A stretch of DNA of 64,000 nt, taken from contig CAJUMA010000001.1 in assembly GCA_910587065.1 (NCBI GenBank), forward strand, positions 9,346-73,345. The letters run 5' to 3'. A program made the translations under genes and the position numbers. Source of the DNA: an uncultured Bacilli bacterium. GTDB lineage: Bacteria; Bacillota_I; Bacilli_A; RF39; UBA660. How positions within the stretch are numbered: the first letter of the stretch is position 1; the number at the start of each line of letters is the position of its first letter. Shown here in pieces: positions 25,840 through 36,513 of the stretch. Under the pieces are notes generated by a model. It searched no databases and had not been told where the DNA came from. It saw nothing but the letters and a program-made list of their open reading frames with translations.

Positions 25840-26130
25840 TTATTTTTTACTTAAATACAAATGCTTATTTATTTCCTCCACAGAAATTTTTGAACAAGGA
25901 AATAATTTACATGCCATATCTTTCATTCTTTCTTCCAAACCAGTAATAAAATCTTCTATATAATAAAAATCTTCAATACCTTCACACAATTTCTTTGTTT
26001 TTAACATTTTTGGATTTTTAGCAACTTCTTCAGAAAATACAATCCATTCCTGATACGCTTCGCTATTCATCTCTCTTCTTTCGGGACCCAAAACTTTATC
26101 TAACCAAGCATCGCTTAAAGCCGTATGCAA
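25840..26130 (-). CDS. hypothetical protein, probably the C-terminal piece of a frameshifted gene
   Basis: TTG start in the track. The frame is open upstream to 26190 and overlaps the end of ORF 26174-26548 in another frame. Confidence 0.4.
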   Translation of the reverse strand: MHTALSDAWLDKVLGPERREMNSEAYQEWIVFSEEVAKNPKMLKTKKLCEGIEDFYYIEDFITGLEERMKDMACKLFPCSKISVEEINKHLYLSKK

Positions 26131-26173
26131 TTTATTAAACCATAAAAGTAAATCATGATCACTTTTAGATAAC

Positions 26174-26548
26174 CTATAGTTCTCTTTTCCTCAACGTTTT
26201 CATAAGTTCTTTTACTTTTTTATATTGAGAATTATACCAAGATGCCATAAAAGTTCCATCAGCAAAACGATAATCATTACTTTTAGGTAATACATTACCA
26301 TATTCTGCAGCCTTATCATAATAAACGTTTCTTTTATCTACTATACTTAGTACATCTATACCTCTTAAATAGTCATCGAGATAAGCAAGTCTTTCAATAA
26401 CATATATATCATCACGAGAAATCTTATAATCTCTACTATGCTTACATAAATCAAGTTCTTTTTTAGCTATTTTTAGCATTTCTTTATACCAATCTCGTAA
26501 ATATGTCCCATCTTTAAATTTTTCACCTGGATCATCTAAGTAGCCCAC
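26174..26548 (-). CDS. hypothetical protein with helicase-associated-like W/Y repeats, probably the N-terminal piece of the same gene
   Basis: Repeated DGT(Y/F)xxxWYxxxxK units (KFKDGTYLRDWYKEMLK, FADGTFMASWYNSQYKK). GTG start in the track. Confidence 0.4.
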   Translation of the reverse strand: MGYLDDPGEKFKDGTYLRDWYKEMLKIAKKELDLCKHSRDYKISRDDIYVIERLAYLDDYLRGIDVLSIVDKRNVYYDKAAEYGNVLPKSNDYRFADGTFMASWYNSQYKKVKELMKTLRKREL

Positions 26549-26825
26549 ATTTGAAATAATTCTATCACAATAAATATCTGTTTTACATTACCTACTCATA
26601 AATTTCCCACTTTATTTTATTTAGCAATAATTTCTATTGTTACTTCATCTCTTTTCAATAGAAATTACCTCACTTTCTTGAAATTTAAAAGGATGTTCAC
26701 ATATTTTTTATGTTTACATCCTTTATTTTTAGGCATTGAGCCACAATTTTAAATTATTTACAAGCAAATCCCTATTTGTTAACATTTTTTTAATTTACAA
26801 AACTATCGCAAACCCTTTATTTATC

Positions 26826-26885
26826 TCACTTTCCGCAGCAATTTTTGTACTTTTTGCCCGAACCACATGTTCTACCAAATCCAGT
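26826..26885 (-). pseudogene. orphan duplicate of the secA 3' end (SecA zinc-finger tail)
   Basis: The minus strand reads [18 protein letters not shown], compared with the live SecA tail [20 protein letters not shown] at 32783. There is no upstream ORF. Similarity is at the protein level and partly at the nucleotide level. Confidence 0.65.
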
Positions 26886-27021
26886 ATTTATAGTATTTAT
26901 GGTATTACTGGAATTATTGATATTTCAGGGAAAAAGTGGTTCCGAAGTATCGAATATTTATGGTATTTATAGTACTATGATTACTATAAATATTTCATCC
27001 AATGGGAACAAAATGGGAACA
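26883..27021. repeat. clusters of short direct repeats at the island end (candidate recombinase arm sites)
   Basis: 9-mers (A/G)GTATTTAT at 26883, 26892 and 26962, with variants at 26901, 26953 and 26971. ATGGGAACA occurs at 27002 and 27013, and the same 9-mer recurs at 32713 next to the integrase. Confidence 0.5.
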
Positions 27022-27129
27022 TTGTGCTCATTCGTTCACTAAATCCTATTGTATCTAATAGTAAAACTACCAGACACCTAAATTTTACTAAAGATAATGA
27101 AAATAATCAACTTATTATTCAAAAAAGTG

Positions 27130-30100
27130 CTAAATATTTTCTTGTTTAGTTTTTAATAATTCTTTTATAGGAGGATTTTTAATATCTCTTGGGATTATTG
27201 GAATATCATCTTTTAAAATAGCTGCCGCTTCTAAATCTCCTTTTCCAATTTCGTATGCATGCTTTATATTGACTTTTTTCAACACTATTTCATAATCCCA
27301 TAAAGGAATAATTTCTTCATCTGTGGCAATCATTGGTAAAAGTGTAATTTTAGGATTATTTCCTTTTTTAATTATTTCTTCTAAAATCTTTATATTTTTA
27401 TCATCTTTACAATTCATTTGATGAAAACGCGTTGCATTATTAATAAGAATATTCTTAGTAATACCTTTAGGAACTTTAACTTTACCTGTAATCATAACTC
27501 TATAGTCATAAATATCAGATTTGCTAATTCCTTTTATAAAAGATAGTATTATCTTCCCTTCTTTATCTTCTTTAGATGCATAGTCCATCAAATCTTGAAA
27601 AACTCTTTTTGCACCTTCTTCATTTTCGAATACAAATCCTATTTTTATAAATTTATTATTAATTAGGTCTCCTAAATACACAACACCTTTCCATTTAGCC
27701 ACATCCCAATGATTACATTTAATCAATCCTGAAGAATAAATATTACTATGTGATACGTTCTCAAATGGATTGTTTTCTGGAACACCATATTCAATATTCT
27801 TTTTATCATCAAAAGGATCTACAGTTTCCTCTTTAGCATTGGTTATTTCAATATCTGAATACCATTCTTTAGTTCTACTAATACTATTGACAGGAATATC
27901 TTTTTCTTCTTCAATACCAAATATTTTATTAAGATTATATAAACTATTTGTGTGATTTAAACTTCTTTCAAAAGCCTTTTCATCTTCAAATATTTCCTTA
28001 AAAGTTTTTTCATAGTCTTTATAAATAAAATTAACTGCTAATATGTTAGCTAATAATTTAAACAGCATATCTGTAATTATTTGATGATTTTCTATAGAAA
28101 TATAATACATATTAAATGAATCCAAAGTAATGATATATGTATCTATTCCATCAAATGAATAGTTAACATCAAAGGTTCCACTATCTTTTTCTTGCAATTG
28201 AATAATAATATCTCCACGCATATATGTATTATGATTATGGATTGTTGCAAATGTATTCTCTAATAAAGCCATTATAAATTCAGCAAATTTATGCATTAAA
28301 TCTGTAGAAGTATAATATATTTTCAATTTATTTCCACTAAGCATTGAATTTATTGCACTTTCTTTTCCATTACAATAAATAGGGATAGGAAGTCTTTGAT
28401 TTAATGATGCTTTATAAAAATCCTCTATTTGTTTATCAACTTGATTTTTATCTCCATTACATTCTTCCAATAACTCATCATCATACGCTCCTAATACATA
28501 TTTGGCCATAATTTTTGAAACAATTAAACCATTATTAGAACACTCGAATATTATTTCATCCAGCATTTTAAAATCTTCAAATTTTGTTCTTAATATTTGG
28601 GACGAGATAAGAGCATCTCTTTGTAAAAGAAATTCTTCCTCTTCTTCATGTTTAAATATTTCATTTTTATCAATCAAAATACTATAAAATATATTTTTGA
28701 TGTTAATCCATTGGATAGCTTGCTCTATATTACCAAATTGTATTTCTAAATCAATAATTCTATTTAATATTTTTAACGAAAATGTTTCTAAATTACCTTC
28801 TTTAAAATACAAATCTATAAATAATGTAACTGCAGCTATATAATAATTTTTGGCAGCATATAATAAACCAATAGATTCAAAATTTGCACCAATATTTATA
28901 TATGCTTCTACTAATTTGCCATTAGTCTCTTCCTTATACAATAAAGTTAAACATTTTCCTAAAATATTTATTGCTTCATAATTTCTGCCAGATGATGAAA
29001 GCAATTTAGACTTTTTCAAATACATATCAGCACGTTGAATTTCGCCTTTTCTACTTGTCAACTTATCAATTATTAATTCATAAAGTTCATCAAACTTTTT
29101 ATTATCATTATACACAGGTAAAAGGTTTTCAATCATTTTGGCTAATTCAATAAAATCATATTCTTTAAACTTTGTTGCTTCTTCTGCAATAATACTTAAT
29201 TCTTCACATTGCTTATCAATATTTTCTTCTAATATAATTTTAATAATGCAAATTCTTGTTTTAGCTTTTAATTGTGTAACAAAACTTTGAGATTTTTCTT
29301 TTTCACTTAGAAGATTCAATAGTATTTTTGTTTTAACTTTTACTGCTTCTTTATCCCTATTTTTTCTAGTATATTCTATAGTCCATAAATTAGCTAAATT
29401 CATTATTTCGTCTATGCTTTTATCTTTAATGACTTCCGCTTGATATTCTTCATAATACTTTTCAAAATTTGTACCATCATTTAACCACCAATTATAATAC
29501 CAGGCTAGGTCATATAAAATCTCCCGTTGTGCTACAATATTCTTTTTTGTTTTCGCAAATCTTAAAGCGCGTTCAAATTTTCCTACAACAACAACTTCAT
29601 CTTCTTCTAAATCTCTACTTATAATGGCAGACTCAATAGAAAGATCAATAACTTCTTGATTAATCTTTTTTTTTGAAGAATAGTCTTGTAATTTCTTTTC
29701 TATTTCTTCTACACGTCTTTGTTTTTTTAAATCATTTGGACCAATTTCTTTTTCCTTAATTGGTTGAGTAATATTAATTAATTTTAATAGATCCAAATTT
29801 TTTTCATGTAGAGCTTTATTTAATATCCAAGTTTTATCTAAAATAGTTATATCTAATCCTGTTTCCCTACTTTTATTATCTTGATATTCTAATCTTTTAT
29901 CATTTTTAATCGATTGATTGGTTATAAAAAAGATTTTAGTATATCCTCTTTTTGTATCTATAATTTTTTTTATATCTCCATCACATTTTGATTTCCAACT
30001 TTTTCTTAGGCTAATTGCAAACGCCCACCTGTCATTTTTTCCATTTAAGCCATGCCACCAAAATTCTTGAATATCCTTTGCTACTGGATAATTTTCTGTA

Positions 30101-30333
30101 TCAACCTTACCATCTCCTCCACCAGCTGGACCAGTTTCTTCTATTAAATTAGGACAGACTTCTCTTTCCAATAATTTTCTTATGAATTCTTCAAAATCAA
30201 AATGTTTATTTTGTTCTGATAGTCTTGATAAATGAAAATCTAATATTTCTCTAGGGCACTCAACTTTATCCACAATCTTTGAATCCGAAAATTGATTAGG
30301 ATGTAATTTTTTTAATAAATCTCTTGGTTCCAT
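27130..30333 (-). CDS. large orphan protein (1067 aa): PD-(D/E)xK/Mrr-like N-terminus, TPR-like helical middle, unassigned C-terminal half
   Basis: GGAGG RBS. N-terminus FEEFIRKLLE..ETGPAGGGDGKVD..RWAFAISLRK..KIFFITNQ. Helical repeats at roughly residues 430-560 (NYEAINILGKCLTLLYKE, LVEAYINIGANFESIGLLYAAKNYYIAA). No canonical P-loop. Confidence 0.75.
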   Translation of the reverse strand: MEPRDLLKKLHPNQFSDSKIVDKVECPREILDFHLSRLSEQNKHFDFEEFIRKLLEREVCPNLIEETGPAGGGDGKVDTENYPVAKDIQEFWWHGLNGKNDRWAFAISLRKSWKSKCDGDIKKIIDTKRGYTKIFFITNQSIKNDKRLEYQDNKSRETGLDITILDKTWILNKALHEKNLDLLKLINITQPIKEKEIGPNDLKKQRRVEEIEKKLQDYSSKKKINQEVIDLSIESAIISRDLEEDEVVVVGKFERALRFAKTKKNIVAQREILYDLAWYYNWWLNDGTNFEKYYEEYQAEVIKDKSIDEIMNLANLWTIEYTRKNRDKEAVKVKTKILLNLLSEKEKSQSFVTQLKAKTRICIIKIILEENIDKQCEELSIIAEEATKFKEYDFIELAKMIENLLPVYNDNKKFDELYELIIDKLTSRKGEIQRADMYLKKSKLLSSSGRNYEAINILGKCLTLLYKEETNGKLVEAYINIGANFESIGLLYAAKNYYIAAVTLFIDLYFKEGNLETFSLKILNRIIDLEIQFGNIEQAIQWINIKNIFYSILIDKNEIFKHEEEEEFLLQRDALISSQILRTKFEDFKMLDEIIFECSNNGLIVSKIMAKYVLGAYDDELLEECNGDKNQVDKQIEDFYKASLNQRLPIPIYCNGKESAINSMLSGNKLKIYYTSTDLMHKFAEFIMALLENTFATIHNHNTYMRGDIIIQLQEKDSGTFDVNYSFDGIDTYIITLDSFNMYYISIENHQIITDMLFKLLANILAVNFIYKDYEKTFKEIFEDEKAFERSLNHTNSLYNLNKIFGIEEEKDIPVNSISRTKEWYSDIEITNAKEETVDPFDDKKNIEYGVPENNPFENVSHSNIYSSGLIKCNHWDVAKWKGVVYLGDLINNKFIKIGFVFENEEGAKRVFQDLMDYASKEDKEGKIILSFIKGISKSDIYDYRVMITGKVKVPKGITKNILINNATRFHQMNCKDDKNIKILEEIIKKGNNPKITLLPMIATDEEIIPLWDYEIVLKKVNIKHAYEIGKGDLEAAAILKDDIPIIPRDIKNPPIKELLKTKQENI

Positions 30334-30344
30334 AATACCTCCAA

Positions 30345-31271
30345 TTATAACAATTTTAAATATTTCTTTAACATTTCTATTTCCAACTTAGTTATTAATT
30401 TAACAAAATCTGTGTAATCACCAGTTGTATGAGCTTTATCTAATGCTTCATAATATTCTAATCTATCTTCCTTTTTTATTATTACTGGATTAAACCCATG
30501 ATTCATTAAATCTAAATTCATAAGTAATCTTGAAGTTCTACCATTACCATCTACAAATGGATGAATTTTAACTAATTCCCCATGTAATAAAGCTGCCTGA
30601 ATAATTGGATGGAAATTATTCCAGTTTTCATAATTTAAAACTAATTTTTCCATTAGTTCTGGAACTTTCAAATAATCAGGTGGAATATGAGTAGCACCCT
30701 TTATAGTAACATTTTCTCTTCTATATCTCCCTGCATTTTCATCATCAATATCTTTTAAAACTAATTGATGAATACCTTTGATATTCCACTCACTAATTGG
30801 ATTGTTCTCTTTTAGCAAATCATTTAAATATAAAATTGCCTTTTCATGATTAATAGCCTCTAAATGCTCTTTTATTGATTTTCCTCCAACTGTAATTCCC
30901 TCTAATACTACTTGTGTTTCTCTAAGTGTCAATGTATTACCTTCTATACCATTACTGTTATATGTCCATTCAAGATTAATCGATTCTTCTAATGATTTTA
31001 AAGTTTCTTTCGGTATAGGTCTTTTATTATCTAATTCTCTCTTTATTTGGTCGACTTCATTAAAATAATTATCCTCTAAATCAATAATAAATTCTGTAGA
31101 ATCTGGTTTAATAACTCGTTTATCCACAGGTTTTATTGCATCAACTGGAATATTCCAACTGTTTCCGTTTTTAACAGCTCCTTCAATTCTACCATCTTGT
31201 AATAGTTGTCTTATCCTTCTTTCACTAATATTCCATTTTTTTACAGCTTCTTTAGTAGTCATAAATTCCAT
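30345..31271 (-). CDS. Fic (Fido) domain protein with N-terminal excisionase/MerR-like HTH
   Basis: HTH MTTKEAVKKWNISERRIRQLLQDGRIEGA, and an intact Fic motif HPFVDGNGRTSRLLMN. Its stop lies 11 nt before the 1067-aa ORF. Confidence 0.85.
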   Translation of the reverse strand: MEFMTTKEAVKKWNISERRIRQLLQDGRIEGAVKNGNSWNIPVDAIKPVDKRVIKPDSTEFIIDLEDNYFNEVDQIKRELDNKRPIPKETLKSLEESINLEWTYNSNGIEGNTLTLRETQVVLEGITVGGKSIKEHLEAINHEKAILYLNDLLKENNPISEWNIKGIHQLVLKDIDDENAGRYRRENVTIKGATHIPPDYLKVPELMEKLVLNYENWNNFHPIIQAALLHGELVKIHPFVDGNGRTSRLLMNLDLMNHGFNPVIIKKEDRLEYYEALDKAHTTGDYTDFVKLITKLEIEMLKKYLKLL

Positions 31272-31332
31272 AACTCTTCACCTCTATATATCATTATACC
31301 GTTGTCGGTAGTTTAAGTCAATTATATAAACT

Positions 31333-32595
31333 CTAGTTTTTAAATTTTATAATTTCATTTATAGTTTCTGATTTTACTGTTTCTTCAAACTTTTCACTTG
31401 CTCCTTTAAGTGTTACTTCTGTTGAGGAAATATAATAATTCTCCGTTGCTTCTATTTTGCTATGACCCAAAATATCCGCAACATCTCTAATTTCTACACC
31501 ATTTCTTAAACTTTTTGTTGCGTAACTTCCCCTTAAATCATAAAATCTGCAATTTTTTATTCCTAGGTCTGTATGAATTACTTTGTATGGATATTTTACA
31601 ATGTCAGTTCCGCTAAAAACTCCATTATCTTTTCTAAATACAAAATCTAACGTCTCTAATGATTTAGATCTTCTAGTAGTTTCAACTACCCTATATTCTA
31701 CTATTTTTCCATACTTATTTTTAACATCTTCTAAATGATAGTATTTATAATTTTTACCATAATCCTTCTTATAATTATCTTGTTTACTTTTATAATTTTT
31801 TAATGCGGTTAATAAAGTATCACAAATATATACTTTTCTTACTCCATTTATTGTTTTTGTCGTACCCAAAAACCATTTGCCTTTTTCATCTTTTTCCTTA
31901 CTATATACATTATGTTCAATACTGATAATTCTTTTTTCAAGATCAACTTTATCCCACAGGGCACAAACTTCTCCTGTTCTCATACCAGTGAAACACGCAG
32001 TTAAAAACGCACAAGTAAAGGCATAATTATTTTTAAATCTATTTAAAATGATATCAATTTCATCTTGAGTATAAATATGCCTTATGGTCTTTTTTTTTAA
32101 TTGTGCAAGATGGGGCAAACTTACAGTTATTGCTGGATTATAATTAATAAATCCAAAGATATCAGTTGCTACTCTAAATGAACATTTTATTACTTTTACA
32201 AAATTTCTTAAATATCCATAAGAGTAATCATATCTTCTACATACATCTATTAAATATTTGTTTAACTGATAACTTGTAATTGCATTAAGTCTATAATGAC
32301 CTAAATAAATCTTTAAATACTTATTAACAATAACAGAATACTCTTCTATTGTTCTGTATTTTAAATTTACTTTACAGTAATTATCTAGCCAATAATCTAA
32401 ATAATCTCCATAAGACATAAAGGCTTCTATCCTATATCCACCATTTTGATATTCTTCATAAGCCTTTTGCCCTGCAATAAATGCAGCATTTTTTGTTTTA
32501 AACCCAGATTTTGAAATATACTTTCTCTTGCCATTTACTCTTGCTGTTTCAAATCGATACTGATACACCTTTCCCCTTTTTTGAATACTAATCAT
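31333..32595 (-). CDS. tyrosine site-specific recombinase (phage integrase family)
   Basis: Has an N-terminal SAM-like/AP2-like region and a catalytic domain. Catalytic motifs are FTGMRTGEVCAL, HDLRGSYATK and ILGHSKIEATENYY. ATG 32595, 9 nt after AGGGAG, is preferred over the track start at 32655. Confidence 0.9.
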   Translation of the reverse strand: MISIQKRGKVYQYRFETARVNGKRKYISKSGFKTKNAAFIAGQKAYEEYQNGGYRIEAFMSYGDYLDYWLDNYCKVNLKYRTIEEYSVIVNKYLKIYLGHYRLNAITSYQLNKYLIDVCRRYDYSYGYLRNFVKVIKCSFRVATDIFGFINYNPAITVSLPHLAQLKKKTIRHIYTQDEIDIILNRFKNNYAFTCAFLTACFTGMRTGEVCALWDKVDLEKRIISIEHNVYSKEKDEKGKWFLGTTKTINGVRKVYICDTLLTALKNYKSKQDNYKKDYGKNYKYYHLEDVKNKYGKIVEYRVVETTRRSKSLETLDFVFRKDNGVFSGTDIVKYPYKVIHTDLGIKNCRFYDLRGSYATKSLRNGVEIRDVADILGHSKIEATENYYISSTEVTLKGASEKFEETVKSETINEIIKFKN

Positions 32596-32631
32596 TCTTA
32601 TCATCTCCCTTTCATTTTCGATTAGTTTTAC

Positions 32632-32677
32632 TAAAACAAAAAGGAATGTTATCATTTTCTCTATGTTAACATTCCTT
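32632..32677 (-). terminator. secA terminator-like hairpin (or att-associated inverted repeat)
   Basis: Perfect 10-bp inverted repeat AAGGAATGTT/AACATTCCTT (32641-32650 and 32668-32677) with a 17-nt loop. On the minus strand it is followed by TTTGTTTT. Confidence 0.5.
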
Positions 32678-32782
32678 TATTTATCAATGTTTTAGTTATT
32701 TATTTTTAATTTATGGGAACAAATGTAAATTTCGCTACCACTTTCAATTTTATCAAATTCCTCGGAAAACCTTATTTTACGG

Positions 32783-35281
32783 TCATTTCCCGCAACATTG
32801 CTTATACTTTTTCCCGCTACCACAAGGACATTTGTCATTACGACCAACCTTACTCTCGTTCTTAACAGTTGTCTTAACTTTTTCCTTACCATCACCTGCG
32901 TTGCCTTCTAATTGTCTTGCAGCAAAGTTTTGTTTTATCTCCATTTTAAGTAAAAACGTTGCAATTGAAGCATCAATATTATCTTGCATTGCTTCAAACA
33001 TTTCATATCCCTCTAAAGCATATGCTTGTAAAGGGTTATTTTGTCCATAACCACGAAGCCCTATACCTTCTCTTAATTGATCCATATCAGCTATATGTTT
33101 AACCCATGCTTCATCAATTACACGAAGCGATATATGTTTTTCAAAATCAGTTACAATTTCTTTTGGAACAATCTCAATTTTTTCCTCATAATCTTTTATA
33201 ACTCTTTCACTTAAGATTGCAAAAACTTCATCTTCTTTTTTACCATATAAATCTTCAGGTCTAATTTTTTCTTTCTTAAGTAAATTATGATTAACAGCAT
33301 CACATATTCCATCCATATCAGAATTAGTTAAATAACCCTCAGGAGCAATATGTGCTTCAATCAACTCATCTATATAATCATTTAAAATATCAATTATAAT
33401 TTGATGAATATCCTCTGAATCTAAAATTTCATTTCTTCTTTCATAAATAATCTTTCTTTGTTCAGATACAATATTGTCATAATCAAGTAAGTTCTTACGC
33501 ATATCATAGTTATTGCCTTCAACCTTCTTTTGAGCAGATTCAACAGACTTAGTAAACATTTTACTTCTAACTTGTTCCATATCATCTAATCCTAAAGATT
33601 GAACCATATTCTTAACTCTATCAGCTCCGAATCTATGCATTAACTCATCTTCAAAAGAAATAAAGAATTGAGAATAACCAGGGTCGCCTTGACGACCTGC
33701 ACGACCACGTAACTGATTATCGATACGGCGAGATTCATGTCTTTCAGTACCAATTACACAAAGACCACCTAATTCAGAAACTCCATCGCCAAGTTTAATA
33801 TCAGTTCCACGCCCCGCCATATTTGTAGCTATTGTAACGGCTCCTTTTTCACCAGCCTTAGCAATAATTTCTGCTTCTCTTGCATGATTCTTGGCATTTA
33901 AAACTTCATGTTTAATTCCTACTTTATCTAACATTTTAGATAATCTCTCATTATTTTCAACTGAAATTGTACCCACTAATATTGGTTGTCCTGTTTCATG
34001 AACTTGTTTAATAAAGTCAACAATGTTTTTAAACTTAGCTCCTTCAGTGGCATACATTATATCCGACATATCTTTTCTAATGCATGGCTTATTTGTAGGA
34101 ATTTGAATGACATACATATTATAAATATCTCTAAATTCTTCTTCTTCTGTTTTAGCAGTACCTGTCATACCAGAAATTTTCGCATACATTCTAAACAAAT
34201 TTTGAAAAGTAATTGTTGCCATTGTACGAGTTTCTTCATTTATTTGAACTCCCTCTTTAGCTTCAATTGCTTGATGTAAGCCATCGCTAAATTGTCTTCC
34301 TTGCATCAAACGTCCTGTAAAAGGGTCAACAATAATTATCTTTTGTTCCCCATCAACAACATAATCAACATCTAATTTCATTCCGTAATTAGCTTTTAAT
34401 GCTTGGTTTATATGATGCACTAAAACGGTATTATCTTCATCATATAAATTTTTTAATTTAAAGAATTTTTCAACCTTTTTAGAACCATCTTCTGTTAACA
34501 TAACAGATTTAGTCTTAGGATCAACCGTATAATCATCTTCTTCAACTAATGATTTAACAGCTTTATCAGCTTCACGATAAAGATTAGTTGTATTAACTTT
34601 ACCACCAGAGATTATCAGTGGAGTACGAGCTTCATCAATTAAGATTGAATCGACTTCATCTAGAATTACATAATTTAATTTTCTTAGTACTCTATCTTCT
34701 TTTCTGACAACCATGTTATCTCTTAAATAATCAAAACCAACTTCATTATTAGTCGAATAAGTTATATCACAATTATAAACTTCTCTTTTCTCTTCAGGAC
34801 TCATCTCATGTAAATTAACCCCTACACTTAAGCCTAAGAATTCATAAATTGGTCTCATCCAATCAGCATTACGTTGAGTTAAATACTCATTTACTGTAAC
34901 AACGTGAACGCCTTTACCTGTTAAAGCATTTAAATAAGCTGGCAAAATAGTAGTTAAGGTTTTTCCTTCACCAGTCTTTAATTCAGCAATATTACCAAAA
35001 TGCAATGCTAAACCACCAAGTAATTGAACATAGTAAGGTTTTTCACCAATTTGTCTATAAGCAACTTCTCTAGCAGCAGCAAAAGCTGTAACAATAATAT
35101 CTTCATCATTAACTGTTTTTCCATTTTCCAATTGAGCCTTTAATTTGTCTGTTGTCGATGCTAAGTCCTCATCACTCATATTCGTATACTTATCATCTAA
35201 TGCGACAATTTTATCAGCAATCTTTTTAAATTTTTTTAATTCTTTATATTCAGTATCTACTAAACTTTTTAATAATCCCAT
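32783..35281 (-). CDS. secA: preprotein translocase ATPase SecA
   Basis: 832 aa. Walker A MKTGEGKTL-type (ELKTGEGKTLT), DEAD-like box DEVDSILIDEARTPLIISG, and the C-terminal Zn finger CPCGSGKKYKQCCGK. Confidence 0.97.
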   Translation of the reverse strand: MGLLKSLVDTEYKELKKFKKIADKIVALDDKYTNMSDEDLASTTDKLKAQLENGKTVNDEDIIVTAFAAAREVAYRQIGEKPYYVQLLGGLALHFGNIAELKTGEGKTLTTILPAYLNALTGKGVHVVTVNEYLTQRNADWMRPIYEFLGLSVGVNLHEMSPEEKREVYNCDITYSTNNEVGFDYLRDNMVVRKEDRVLRKLNYVILDEVDSILIDEARTPLIISGGKVNTTNLYREADKAVKSLVEEDDYTVDPKTKSVMLTEDGSKKVEKFFKLKNLYDEDNTVLVHHINQALKANYGMKLDVDYVVDGEQKIIIVDPFTGRLMQGRQFSDGLHQAIEAKEGVQINEETRTMATITFQNLFRMYAKISGMTGTAKTEEEEFRDIYNMYVIQIPTNKPCIRKDMSDIMYATEGAKFKNIVDFIKQVHETGQPILVGTISVENNERLSKMLDKVGIKHEVLNAKNHAREAEIIAKAGEKGAVTIATNMAGRGTDIKLGDGVSELGGLCVIGTERHESRRIDNQLRGRAGRQGDPGYSQFFISFEDELMHRFGADRVKNMVQSLGLDDMEQVRSKMFTKSVESAQKKVEGNNYDMRKNLLDYDNIVSEQRKIIYERRNEILDSEDIHQIIIDILNDYIDELIEAHIAPEGYLTNSDMDGICDAVNHNLLKKEKIRPEDLYGKKEDEVFAILSERVIKDYEEKIEIVPKEIVTDFEKHISLRVIDEAWVKHIADMDQLREGIGLRGYGQNNPLQAYALEGYEMFEAMQDNIDASIATFLLKMEIKQNFAARQLEGNAGDGKEKVKTTVKNESKVGRNDKCPCGSGKKYKQCCGK

Positions 35282-35361: not shown

Positions 35362-36513
35362 TTATCTATCTTTTACCACCTTTTTAGATTTATCTTTTTT
35401 TAACAACTTTTTTTCATAACTCGTGAGAATCTTCTCTCTATCAGCTTCTGCTACATTGCTATCTATTGCATCTTTTAAATTATTTATTCTCATCTTTTCT
35501 GCTGCCATAAAAGCTTCTTTTATCTTTATCGACTCATAAAACAAATTTTCTACATCTCTTTTCCTTGGGTTTAAAGATAATGTTCCATCATTATTATCTA
35601 AATCATTAATTTCTAGATTATATGAGAAATAAAAACAACCGACAAGTACCCAATAAATTATAGAAATCAAAGTAAGAATTACTCTACGAGGTAACCTTGT
35701 TTTAGAAAATATTACCTTTGCTGATTTTATATCATTATATCTAACAATACGTATAATGATTTCTCTTTTCTCATCCCGTGTTAAATTATCTAATATACTC
35801 TTATCATCACTTTCCAAATATCTAGAATTTTTTAACATTTCAACAATTCTATCAAACAAATTATCATATTCTTTCTCTTCATATTCATGGAAATCTAAAT
35901 TTTCATTTTCGTTTAAATCAAAATAGTCGCTCACTACATTTGCACTACTAATAGACATTTCCCCATTTTCAGCTAAACTAACTTGAATATCTACACACTC
36001 TTCACCATTATGAATTTTCGCATCAATTGAATTATCTAAAGTTGCATTTGAATCTAATACTTCATCAGCATCCGAATCAACTATGACATGACTACACATG
36101 GTTGCAATATCACCCAATCTATATAACTTCATAGGTTCTTTTTCACATAATCCATCCTTTGAACTATAAATCGTTTCTTCCATTATACATTCAGTAACTT
36201 TTCCTTCTTCTTCGACTCTTTTAGGAGTAAAAAACGTCGAAATAGCAAGAGCTGTTAGAAATGCTGGCACACTAATCATAACAAATCTTGTCCTTCTAAC
36301 AAAAAAGTAATTTTTAAAACATACCTTTAAATTATTAACACGAACTTCCTCTTCTAAATATTTAATTATTTTCGAAGAACCCTCATTCTTTACTGGAACA
36401 TTCGTATCTCTATCTAACTCTTTTTCTAAAGAAATTCTATCAATATTTTTTAAATACTTTATTTGATTTATGTTATTTATTACAGCTCTTGTAAAATCTA
36501 ACATAATAATCAC
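35362..36513 (-). CDS. hypothetical two-TM membrane protein, paralog A
   Basis: Shares its N-terminus (TRAVINNINQIKYLKNI), EVRVNNLKV, two TM helices and the C-terminal KEAFMAAEK..L helix with ORF 36583-37692. Confidence 0.6.
   Translation of the reverse strand: MIIMLDFTRAVINNINQIKYLKNIDRISLEKELDRDTNVPVKNEGSSKIIKYLEEEVRVNNLKVCFKNYFFVRRTRFVMISVPAFLTALAISTFFTPKRVEEEGKVTECIMEETIYSSKDGLCEKEPMKLYRLGDIATMCSHVIVDSDADEVLDSNATLDNSIDAKIHNGEECVDIQVSLAENGEMSISSANVVSDYFDLNENENLDFHEYEEKEYDNLFDRIVEMLKNSRYLESDDKSILDNLTRDEKREIIIRIVRYNDIKSAKVIFSKTRLPRRVILTLISIIYWVLVGCFYFSYNLEINDLDNNDGTLSLNPRKRDVENLFYESIKIKEAFMAAEKMRINNLKDAIDSNVAEADREKILTSYEKKLLKKDKSKKVVKDR

Follow-up and report, generated by a model that had tools for sequence, protein, structure and literature searches.

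The DNA analysed here is a stretch of 64,000 nucleotides (nt; hereafter the window) from an uncultured, low-GC Bacilli bacterium, and its subject is the secA locus. With 100% identity, the window matches contig CAPXWM010000002.1 of a mouse-gut metagenome-assembled genome, GCA_948736825.1. On the minus strand, secA is followed by genes for a tyrosine integrase, a Fic protein with a helix-turn-helix (HTH) and a protein of 1067 amino acids (aa), and then by a second copy of the secA 3' end (Table 1). An earlier note on this DNA had described minus strand 26882-26826 as a second SecA-tail coding string without an open reading frame (ORF) in front of it, and had proposed that an integrase element entered the 3' end of secA and supplied it with a replacement tail. 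Everything that the note described is present at the positions that it gave.

Table 1. Position of features at the secA locus of the window and of related features in other loci (prefix L)
Feature	Position	Strand	Remarks
secA	32783-35281	-	ORF and translation; Pfam SecA domains called on the identical contig L087
attL crossover, TGTGG (Cys-Gly codons of CPCGSG)	32820-32824	-	Host/element switch inside these 5 nt
P' arm	32596-32819	-	Replacement secA tail and stop, arm-type site, hairpin terminator, then integrase ribosome-binding site; conserved in L086 and L095
P' arm-type site, GTTCCCA	32720-32714	-	Same orientation as the P-arm copies
P' hairpin terminator	about 32677-32641	-	-15 kcal/mol, z = -4.5
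Tyrosine integrase, 420 aa	31333-32595	-	Arm-binding N-terminus, SAM-like core-binding domain, catalytic domain
A9 tract between DNA-binding and catalytic halves of the integrase gene	32098-32090	-	In frame in the window
Promoter-like TTGACT-17-TATAAT	31321-31293	-	Ahead of HTH-Fic
HTH-Fic, 308 aa	30345-31271	-	Excisionase-like HTH, aa 3-46; SNGIEGN, aa 106; Fic motif HPFVDGNGRTSR, aa 237
Cargo protein, 1067 aa	27130-30333	-	PD-(D/E)xK-like, aa 1-196; solenoid of tetratricopeptide-repeat (TPR) type, aa 200-645; two C-terminal alpha/beta domains
P arm	26868-27045	-	Conserved GTGAACGAATG box, arm-type sites and repeats; identity to attR flanks of other elements
P-arm tandem arm-type sites, GTTCCCA	27020-27014, 27009-27003	-	
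ATAAATAC repeats in P arm	26970-26963, 26900-26893, 26891-26884	-	
attR crossover, TGTGG	26863-26867	-	Same host/element switch reasoning; no similarity between P arm and secA upstream
Displaced secA tail (tail-X), final 11 codons and TGA	26826-26862	-	SEC-C match; identical to L033 secA tail and L100 attR tail
Remnant P' arm of element X	26582-26825	-	Degenerate arm site; hairpin terminator about 26724-26688; no integrase follows
A8 tract in related loci	L086 3292; L095 8887; L050 14003 and 18357; L075 14163; L033 14113		
SecA-tail-like copies in Clostridial elements	L089 9561-9613; L091 5133-5165; L092 5307, 12356		

The secA tails, the crossover site and the arms

That the second copy is a SecA tail was borne out by a profile search, in which its 25-aa translation reached 26.1 bits with Pfam SEC-C (PF02810), above the cut-off of 20.4. 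Only positions 7-19 of the 19 in the profile are matched, the copy being cut short at the first Cys pair. When 86 tail copies were made into a DNA profile (nhmmer), exactly two tail sites were found in the window, with E-values of 2.6e-10 and 3.6e-10, both on the same strand. From TGTGG to the stop codon the two tails are identical at 31 of 42 nt without gaps (z = 7.7; none of 500 dinucleotide shuffles was as good), and past the stop they remain similar for about 200 nt more (z = 4.9, 0/500 shuffles), including a matching terminator hairpin. Upstream of TGTGG the two tail regions have no similarity (z = 0.1). secA is host-derived as far as the core at 32820; its last 12 codons and stop (32819-32783) are element-supplied, and this tail preserves the SecA ORF and the SEC-C motif.

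In the window the element-supplied tail ends in a TGA stop (32783-32785), with CCG TAA after it. In other hosts the stop of related tails is TAA, TAG or TGA, and some of these tails are extended or altered (CCLKVK-stop in L095, CCGKNS-stop in L089). From these varied ends it follows that SecA C-termini in these bacteria are mobile-element alleles.

The core of the attachment sites was placed by comparison with about 100 related loci. Host sequence gives way to element sequence inside TGTGG, which is at the second Cys codon of CPC; this holds for both junctions in the window, in the conspecific locus L086, in L095 and in the three copies arrayed in L050. The window reads ...AAATGTCCT-TGTGG-TAGCGGGAAAAAGTATAA... 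at attL, beside the integrase gene, and ...GGTAGAACA-TGTGG-TTCGGGCAAAAAGTACAA... at attR. At attL of L095/L097 host sequence (...GCTTGTCCA) is followed by TGTGG and TAGCGGGAAAAAGTATAA..., and at attR the P arm (...CTGTGGAACT) is followed by TGTGG, AAGTGGTAAGAAATATAA... and then the native hairpin terminator. To the right of TGTGG, attL is element-borne and shared between hosts (window, L086 and L095), its left flank being host-specific; in the same loci the right side of attR is host-specific and its left flank behaves oppositely. Together with the L050 array, this pattern places the crossover in TGTGG. The 8-bp exact match between the tails reported previously (TACTTTTT) is real, but it is not the site of recombination: the 8-mer AAAAAGTA was rejected as the core because element- and host-specific sequence already differ between TGTGG and the 8-mer. 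The reconstructed attP is ...GGTAGAACA-TGTGG-TAGCGGGAAAAAG... and the reconstructed attB ...AAATGTCCT-TGTGG-TTCGGGCAAAAAG...; the junctions predicted after excision are ...GGATTTGGTAGAACA-TGTGG-TAGCGGGAAAAAGTATAAGC... (attP) and ...AATGACAAATGTCCT-TGTGG-TTCGGGCAAAAAGTACAAAAATTGC... (attB).

Over the 180 nt to the left of attR, the P arm shares 76-95% identity with the attR left flanks in L071, L033, L100 and L095. Of the 9-mer TGTTCCCAT, 0.4 copies would be expected in the window; there are four, three of which are in the arms on the same strand. Each lineage has its own arm motif (GTTCCCA, GTTTGCA, GTCCACA or GTTCACA), which is present twice in P, and each of the P' arms that were read (window/L086/L095, L033 and L050) contains one copy of the motif found in P of the same element. 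The motif differs between lineages yet is matched between P and P' within one element, as is expected for arm-type sites read by the N-terminal arm-binding domain of an integrase. attP appears to be lambda-like, with arm-type sites in both arms. In the P' arm the terminator hairpin stands directly before the ribosome-binding site of the integrase gene; from this layout, the element gives secA 12 codons, a stop codon and a terminator. A terminator scan of the consensus type missed both hairpins, as their loops exceed its limit, and promoter-like sites were not enriched in a consensus scan.

The interval 32824-26868 (5957 bp) is very probably a site-specific integrative island, whose integrase would use the conserved DNA of the SecA zinc-binding tail as attB. 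The proposal that an integrase element in the 3' end of secA supplies a replacement tail is upheld by the recurrence of the site, the sharp homology boundary, the discordance between element and host (both described below for relatives) and the covariation of the arm sites. In the mechanism envisaged, attP would carry two arm-type sites some 140-155 bp ahead of the core, then TGTGG, then the secA-tail copy with its stop and terminator; a third arm-type site would lie about 100 bp downstream of the core, with the integrase gene next. Strand exchange within TGTGG would join host secA to the tail of the element, leaving SecA intact with a single residue change (N to Q), and the former tail would be displaced 6 kb downstream as attR. 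The site has been used more than once, as only about 240 bp of P' arm is left of an earlier element X. The backbone of the clade would be the integrase together with a class-II Fic protein that is auto-inhibited and has an excisionase-like HTH, and the third gene would be exchangeable cargo. This particular integrase presumably performs the recombination; the island, in which no transfer genes are present, presumably also moves from cell to cell.

Recurrence of the site and movement between species

Use of the secA tail is not confined to the window. Of the 80 secA loci taken from relatives, which bear the labels Erysipelotrichales, Bacilli, 'Tenericutes' or 'Mycoplasma sp. CAG', at least 12 have homologues of the integrase directly downstream of secA on the same strand. 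One or two extra CGSGKKYK[QN]CCGK-stop tails are found downstream of secA in 12 loci, and the homology always starts at TGTGG. An element, extra tail or remnant occupies the site in 16 of the 47 loci having at least 1 kb of downstream sequence, sometimes in tandem; arrays or integrase-less remnants are seen in L010, L028 and L050 and, as the X remnant, in the window. In 23 of the 80 the contig ends within 300 nt of the secA stop, which is accounted for by a repeated, polymorphic site in short-read assemblies.

In the closest relatives, L016, L001 and L002, whose SecA is 94, 93 and 89% identical, secA has one tail only and an integrase is missing; a second tail kept in place without the integrase, which would have spoken against the earlier proposal, is not seen in them. 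L001 is syntenic with the window from 25378 downward and is the nearest 'empty' comparator. The empty site anticipated in relatives is therefore seen in these three, but none was found within the species.

Full-length integrases about 60% identical to that of the window (423 aa) are very abundant in Clostridia, one cluster being present on 247 contigs. They lie at the opposite end of larger elements and are preceded by a 78-aa excisionase (Xis). About 290 nt past these integrases (L089-L094) there is a P arm of the same type, TG[CT]GG and a SecA-tail-like sequence. Downstream of the tail copy in L093 lie prfB-ftsE-ftsX, the context of secA in Bacillus. In L091 the att copy is inside a 219-aa SEC-C ORF, and SEC-C motifs of genes other than secA may also be targets. 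Targeting of SEC-C coding DNA seems to be a trait of a large integrase superfamily, its Clostridial elements being known from their attR ends only.

Element and host differ in their degree of divergence. Nucleotide identity of L095 to the window is 72.5% in secA, 90.0% in the integrase gene, 88.7% in the Fic gene, 91.8% in the gene for the 1067-aa protein and 85% in the P arm. L098 is 68.9% identical in secA, 83.7% in the integrase gene and 92.5% in the Fic gene, and neither the 1067-aa gene nor the P arm was found in it; L100 is 71.2% identical in secA, 85.5% in the integrase gene, 92.4% in the Fic gene and 95.5% in the P arm, and the 1067-aa gene was not found. Identity of the element well above that of secA indicates that it has been transferred horizontally between species. 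The trio of integrase, Fic and 1067-aa protein, whose occurrence elsewhere had been raised as a check, is also present at secA in another species (L095/L097).

Conspecific L086 is 99.96% identical to the window in secA, 99.7% in the integrase gene and 100% in the Fic gene, and 92.3% in the 1067-aa gene and 86% in the P arm. The right half of the island is swapped (window 27130-30333 plus 26868-27129 against L086 5059-8524), and L086 is a mosaic that points to recent recombination with another copy of the element.

To the right of attR the window sequence (TTCGGGCAAAAAGTACAAAAATTGCTGCGGAAAGTGAGATAAATAAA...) is identical to the attR of L100 and to the secA tail of L033, whereas secA of these loci has diverged (L033 SecA protein 68%, L100 secA DNA 71% identical to the window). 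The X remnant is 84% identical over 288 nt to L033 12443-12728 and 88% identical to L100, and its hairpin (-14.6 kcal/mol) has z = -5.3. After the X arm both L033 and L100 have a KilA-N gene, 98% identical between them, and in L033 a decayed integrase gene comes next. Since tail-X is identical in three species with diverged secA, the island entered a secA already ended by element X, and the displaced tail is that of the older element, not the native tail of the host. In this respect the reading in the earlier note is corrected; a displaced tail does stand at the far end of the element. The nhmmer profile gave two copies only, and no third att copy bounding the X remnant was found in the window. 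Following the X arm (26825 to about 26582) are a disrupted gene (26548-25840), a TfoX-N gene and, from 25378, the backbone.

The integrase reading frame and rival explanations

For the integrase the start at 32595 was used, which gives the 420 aa annotated in public assemblies; translation from an ATG further upstream, at 32655, would yield 440 aa. It matches Pfam Phage_integrase (PF00589) with 53.1 bits (cut-off 27.1), Phage_int_SAM_3 with 35 bits and a PHROG integrase with 1.3e-54. By sequence the closest solved structures are XerA and Tn1549 Int, and in alignment with these R (GMRTGE), R (YDLR), H (LGHS) and Y (NYY) are in catalytic positions. The Arm-DNA-bind_4 domain is annotated on the 60%-identical relatives.

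The tract of nine A residues between the two halves of the gene has only eight in conspecific L086 and L088 and in 16 similar places. With A8 the 0 frame stops three codons on, and the catalytic half is in the -1 frame. A8 is present at the same codon in L086, L088, L095-L097, L050 (both copies), L075 and L033, and A7 in L072 and L098; the window copy is the only in-frame one (A9) among close relatives. In the database, the approximately 25 clusters with 69% or more identity to the catalytic half all consist of proteins of 216-250 aa that contain this half only, and full-length integrases are found only at 67% identity or less. Between A8 alleles the catalytic half has a ratio of nonsynonymous to synonymous substitutions (dN/dS) of 0.11-0.13 over dS of 0.3-0.8, similar to the N-terminal half. 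Conservation of A AAA AAA A, together with selection on both halves, suggests expression dependent on frameshifting or slippage more than decay, although repeated recent decay at a mutable A tract may be an alternative.

Programmed -1 frameshifting or transcriptional slippage on A-rich heptamers occurs in the transposases of the insertion sequences (IS) IS3 and IS1 and in dnaX. As in IS3/IS1, a slippery A AAA AAA A separates the DNA-binding ORF from the catalytic one, which is in the -1 frame, and diverged members have kept this arrangement. Unlike IS3/IS1, the enzyme is a tyrosine recombinase and not a DDE transposase, and the window copy is in frame. A literature search on frameshifted tyrosine integrases found nothing relevant; coverage was incomplete, so this is a weak negative. 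It is tentatively proposed, with almost as much to be said for it as against it, that the integrase clade of the secA tail is normally out of frame, that full-length enzyme would be made by -1 frameshifting or slippage on A8, and that the product made by default would be the DNA-binding N-terminal half, which could serve as a regulator, as in IS3/IS1. With the HTH-Fic protein, these elements would form a new, abundant class of minimal defence-carrying islands that land on near-universal SEC-C DNA, would thereby have a broad host range, and repeatedly rewrite the end of an essential gene.

Several observations weigh against the interpretation of 32824-26868 as an integrative island. Its three ORFs include no separate excisionase, relaxase, replication or packaging gene in Pfam, NCBIfam and PHROG scans. 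The Arm-DNA-bind_4 score of the integrase (21.4 bits) is just under the Pfam cut-off of 22.3, and Tyr replaces His of HxxR. In most strains the integrase ORF is interrupted (A8), and decay rather than regulation is conceivable. Strict identity at TGTGG is only 5 bp (6 in the window), which is short for an overlap region. Of the contigs read, 20 encode the identical membrane protein downstream, and all 20 have the island; a scan of metagenomes for a junction of secA with tail-X gave the L033 genome only; and the junction pattern of an excised circle (attP) was not found in viral contigs. G+C content (24-29% against 26-32% in the flanks) does not set the island apart. No relaxase, origin of transfer (oriT) or conjugation genes were found in the island scans, although an oriT may remain.

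A rival view is that the island did arrive by integration but is now a fixed, immobile and domesticated remnant, with a decaying integrase and relic att sites. This alternative, which concerns the present state of the island and not its origin, is possible but on balance doubtful. The island appears to be fixed in this species, as every contig read for it carries the island; no circle or empty site was found, the right side of attR is already a decayed older element without an integrase, and the integrase gene is split by A8 in at least 17 conspecific contigs. However, the strain of the window has an intact A9 frame, and the halves of the split gene are free of further lesions, with dN/dS of 0.10-0.17 over dS of 0.2-0.8. 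The arm sites are intact, and the 1067-aa gene and P arm differ by 8-14% between conspecific strains in which secA and the integrase and Fic genes are at least 99.7% identical, which indicates recent exchange. It is improbable that the three genes are the stump left after deletion in a larger prophage, integrative and conjugative element (ICE) or integrative and mobilizable element. The 60%-identical relatives in Clostridia do exceed 8 kb, carry Xis, Rep-like, sigma-factor and restriction-modification genes and have the same P arm and tail at attR, and L013, L018, L028, L067 and L071 have short integrase-less intervals between tails. Against this, a compact layout of about 3-6 kb (attL, integrase, Fic, one or two cargo genes, P arm, attR), with P and P' intact, is found in at least four species, and no close relative has structural, relaxase or replication genes. 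Integrases from phage and viral contigs are at most 32% identical. A phage origin was itself rejected: the closest integrases in phage records and viral contigs were 30-32% identical, and no structural, packaging, replication or repressor genes were found in the island.

The second tail could also be unrelated to integration, being left over from another SEC-C gene or copied locally from the 3' end of secA, with the genes having arrived otherwise. SEC-C motifs do occur in proteins other than SecA, as with the L091 copy inside its SEC-C ORF. But the DNA homology continues past the stop into the terminator, dozens of copies agree to the nucleotide in where the boundary lies, and the copy is always on the secA strand behind a conserved P arm with arm sites. 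Moreover, tail-X with its identical sequence is shared by three species with divergent secA, and local duplication would not produce 74% identity beside a 100%-conserved foreign arm. This explanation is already largely refuted and is the most far-fetched of those considered.

The Fic gene, the cargo and comparison with known elements

Fic follows the integrase in every close relative, and the two genes are adjacent in L095-L101. The HTH-Fic protein scores 85.6 bits with Pfam Fic and 24 bits with HTH_17, below the cut-off of 27. It has the HxFx(D/E)GNGRxxR motif (HPFVDGNGRTSR) and, N-terminal of the core, the inhibitory motif (S/T)xxxE(G/N) (SNGIEGN), which make it a class II Fic protein. It matches the PADLOC models SoFic (1.2e-35) and PDC-S04 (8.9e-37), and its closest solved structure is FICD (E 4e-41). 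With SoFic and FICD it shares the HPFxDGNGRxxR and (S/T)xxxE(G/N) motifs of class II; unlike SoFic, it has an N-terminal excisionase-like HTH and stays below the NCBIfam SoFic equivalog cut-off (34.9 bits against 550). The HTH may have a role in excision; no similarity was detectable between it and the separate Xis of the Clostridial relatives.

The 1067-aa protein had been called an orphan, a description that did not survive: its full-length homologues number more than 230 and range from Clostridia to Bacteroidota and Acidobacteriota, and not one of them is annotated or has a Pfam domain. Pfam, NCBIfam, PHROG, PADLOC and a PDB sequence profile gave only weak TPR matches. Whole-model fold searches with its AlphaFold2 model (mean predicted local distance difference test 86.6) returned only TPR proteins. 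Used alone, the N-terminal domain has weak best fold matches (E 9e-3 to 0.1) to the nuclease domain of Avs4, EcoT38I, Cap4, FokI, Can2 and McrC. The invariant residues E48, GGGDGKVD, S108 and K116 fit a PD-(D/E)xK-like site, whose loop is the least confident part of the model. The protein resembles the Avs4 nuclease domain and restriction endonucleases in this N-domain, with TPR-like repeats after it; unlike Avs4, it has no NTPase of the STAND (signal transduction ATPase with numerous domains) type and matches no PADLOC model. It is variable cargo and probably a defence protein.

In other members of the family (about 1070 aa, several phyla; window, L081 215-4449 and L084 6001-9225), a gene of the RhuM family precedes it in Clostridia instead of Fic. 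In Sphingobacterium it belongs to an island that also encodes a serine recombinase and an AAA_15/AAA_21 ATPase.

The third gene of the secA elements varies: it may be that for the 1067-aa protein, for a metallophosphatase and a DNA methylase, or small ORFs with an IS or KilA-N, the 1067-aa gene being replaced in L096, L098 and L100. Cargo of related elements at secA includes the cyclase of a cyclic-oligonucleotide-based anti-phage signalling system (CBASS), PDC-M59A, PDC-M11A, a PrrC/PDC-S06-like ATPase and FtsX-type ATP-binding cassette transporters. With such cargo it is reasonable to regard the secA elements as putative defence islands.

Elements of this kind, in which an integrase island enters a housekeeping gene at its 3' end and replaces that end, are well known. 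Islands of the SGI1/MGI type and other tyrosine-integrase islands are located in the 3' ends of trmE, guaA and yicC. The secA island resembles the SGI1/MGI type in having the integrase gene beside attL, insertion at the last codons with the gene end supplied, a direct repeat at attR and adaptive cargo. It differs in its target, the secA zinc-finger tail, in its size of only 6 kb, in lacking a relaxase, oriT, mobilization genes and a separate Xis, and in an attP-attB homology that is long (about 65 nt) but diverged, with strict identity over 5-6 bp.

In Streptococcus thermophilus, ICESt1, ICESt3 and the related cis-mobilizable elements accrete in tandem at the 3' end of fda. Serial insertion at one gene end, tandem arrays and integrase-less remnants (L010, L028, L050 and X) are likewise found at secA; unlike ICESt1 and ICESt3, no array member has a conjugation module within the fetched loci, and the integrase lineage and target are others. 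The catalytic domain can be aligned with those of the Tn1549/Tn916 family and XerA (E 2e-8 to 1e-5); R, R, H and Y are in place, and the domain order is the same. In contrast to the relaxed target choice of the Tn916 family, the secA clade is strictly site-specific; pairwise similarity is low, Tyr stands for His in HxxR, and there is the A8/A9 tract. A literature search for secA as an attachment site found nothing relevant, a weak negative given its incomplete coverage. The secA-tail target, the element family and the compact backbone of integrase and Fic appear to be undescribed.

In uncultured gut Bacilli and Clostridia, integration thus recurs at the DNA encoding the zinc-binding tail of SecA; about a third of the informative relatives are occupied, and related integrases occur in hundreds of contigs. 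This accounts for the frequent breaks in assemblies just past secA, and the last 12-13 codons of an essential gene are routinely replaced by mobile-element DNA. The secA tail may serve as an anchor from which to mine defence cargo, such as Fic, the nuclease-TPR family (more than 230 uncharacterized members), CBASS and PADLOC candidate systems. The attP, attB and integrase may provide an integration tool for low-GC gut bacteria that are hard to engineer. If recoding at A8 proves true, the frameshift-controlled logic of IS transposases extends to tyrosine recombinases.

Other observations concern neighbouring sequence. In L088, a 97.3%-identical strain, homology to the window begins at 32827, and at this junction (within the region L088 1339-2610) the island and downstream backbone are joined to an unrelated Flg_new surface-protein gene. 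This gene, which is absent from the window, is fused in frame at the att core, the shared junction lying within CCTTGTGG. The fusion could reflect an integrase-mediated inversion or rearrangement at a pseudo-att site (CCTTGTGG) or an assembly chimera.

Beyond the X arm, two ORFs of 124 and 96 aa in window 25840-26548 (minus strand) correspond to a single 177-aa ORF in L086, so the gene looks disrupted; it gave no family hits and has no homologue in the 80 secA loci. Upstream of secA, a 383-aa gene (35362-36513, minus strand) also gave no family hits, and the closest relatives (L001, L002 and L016) have two or three diverged tandem paralogues of it (28-49% identity) upstream of secA.

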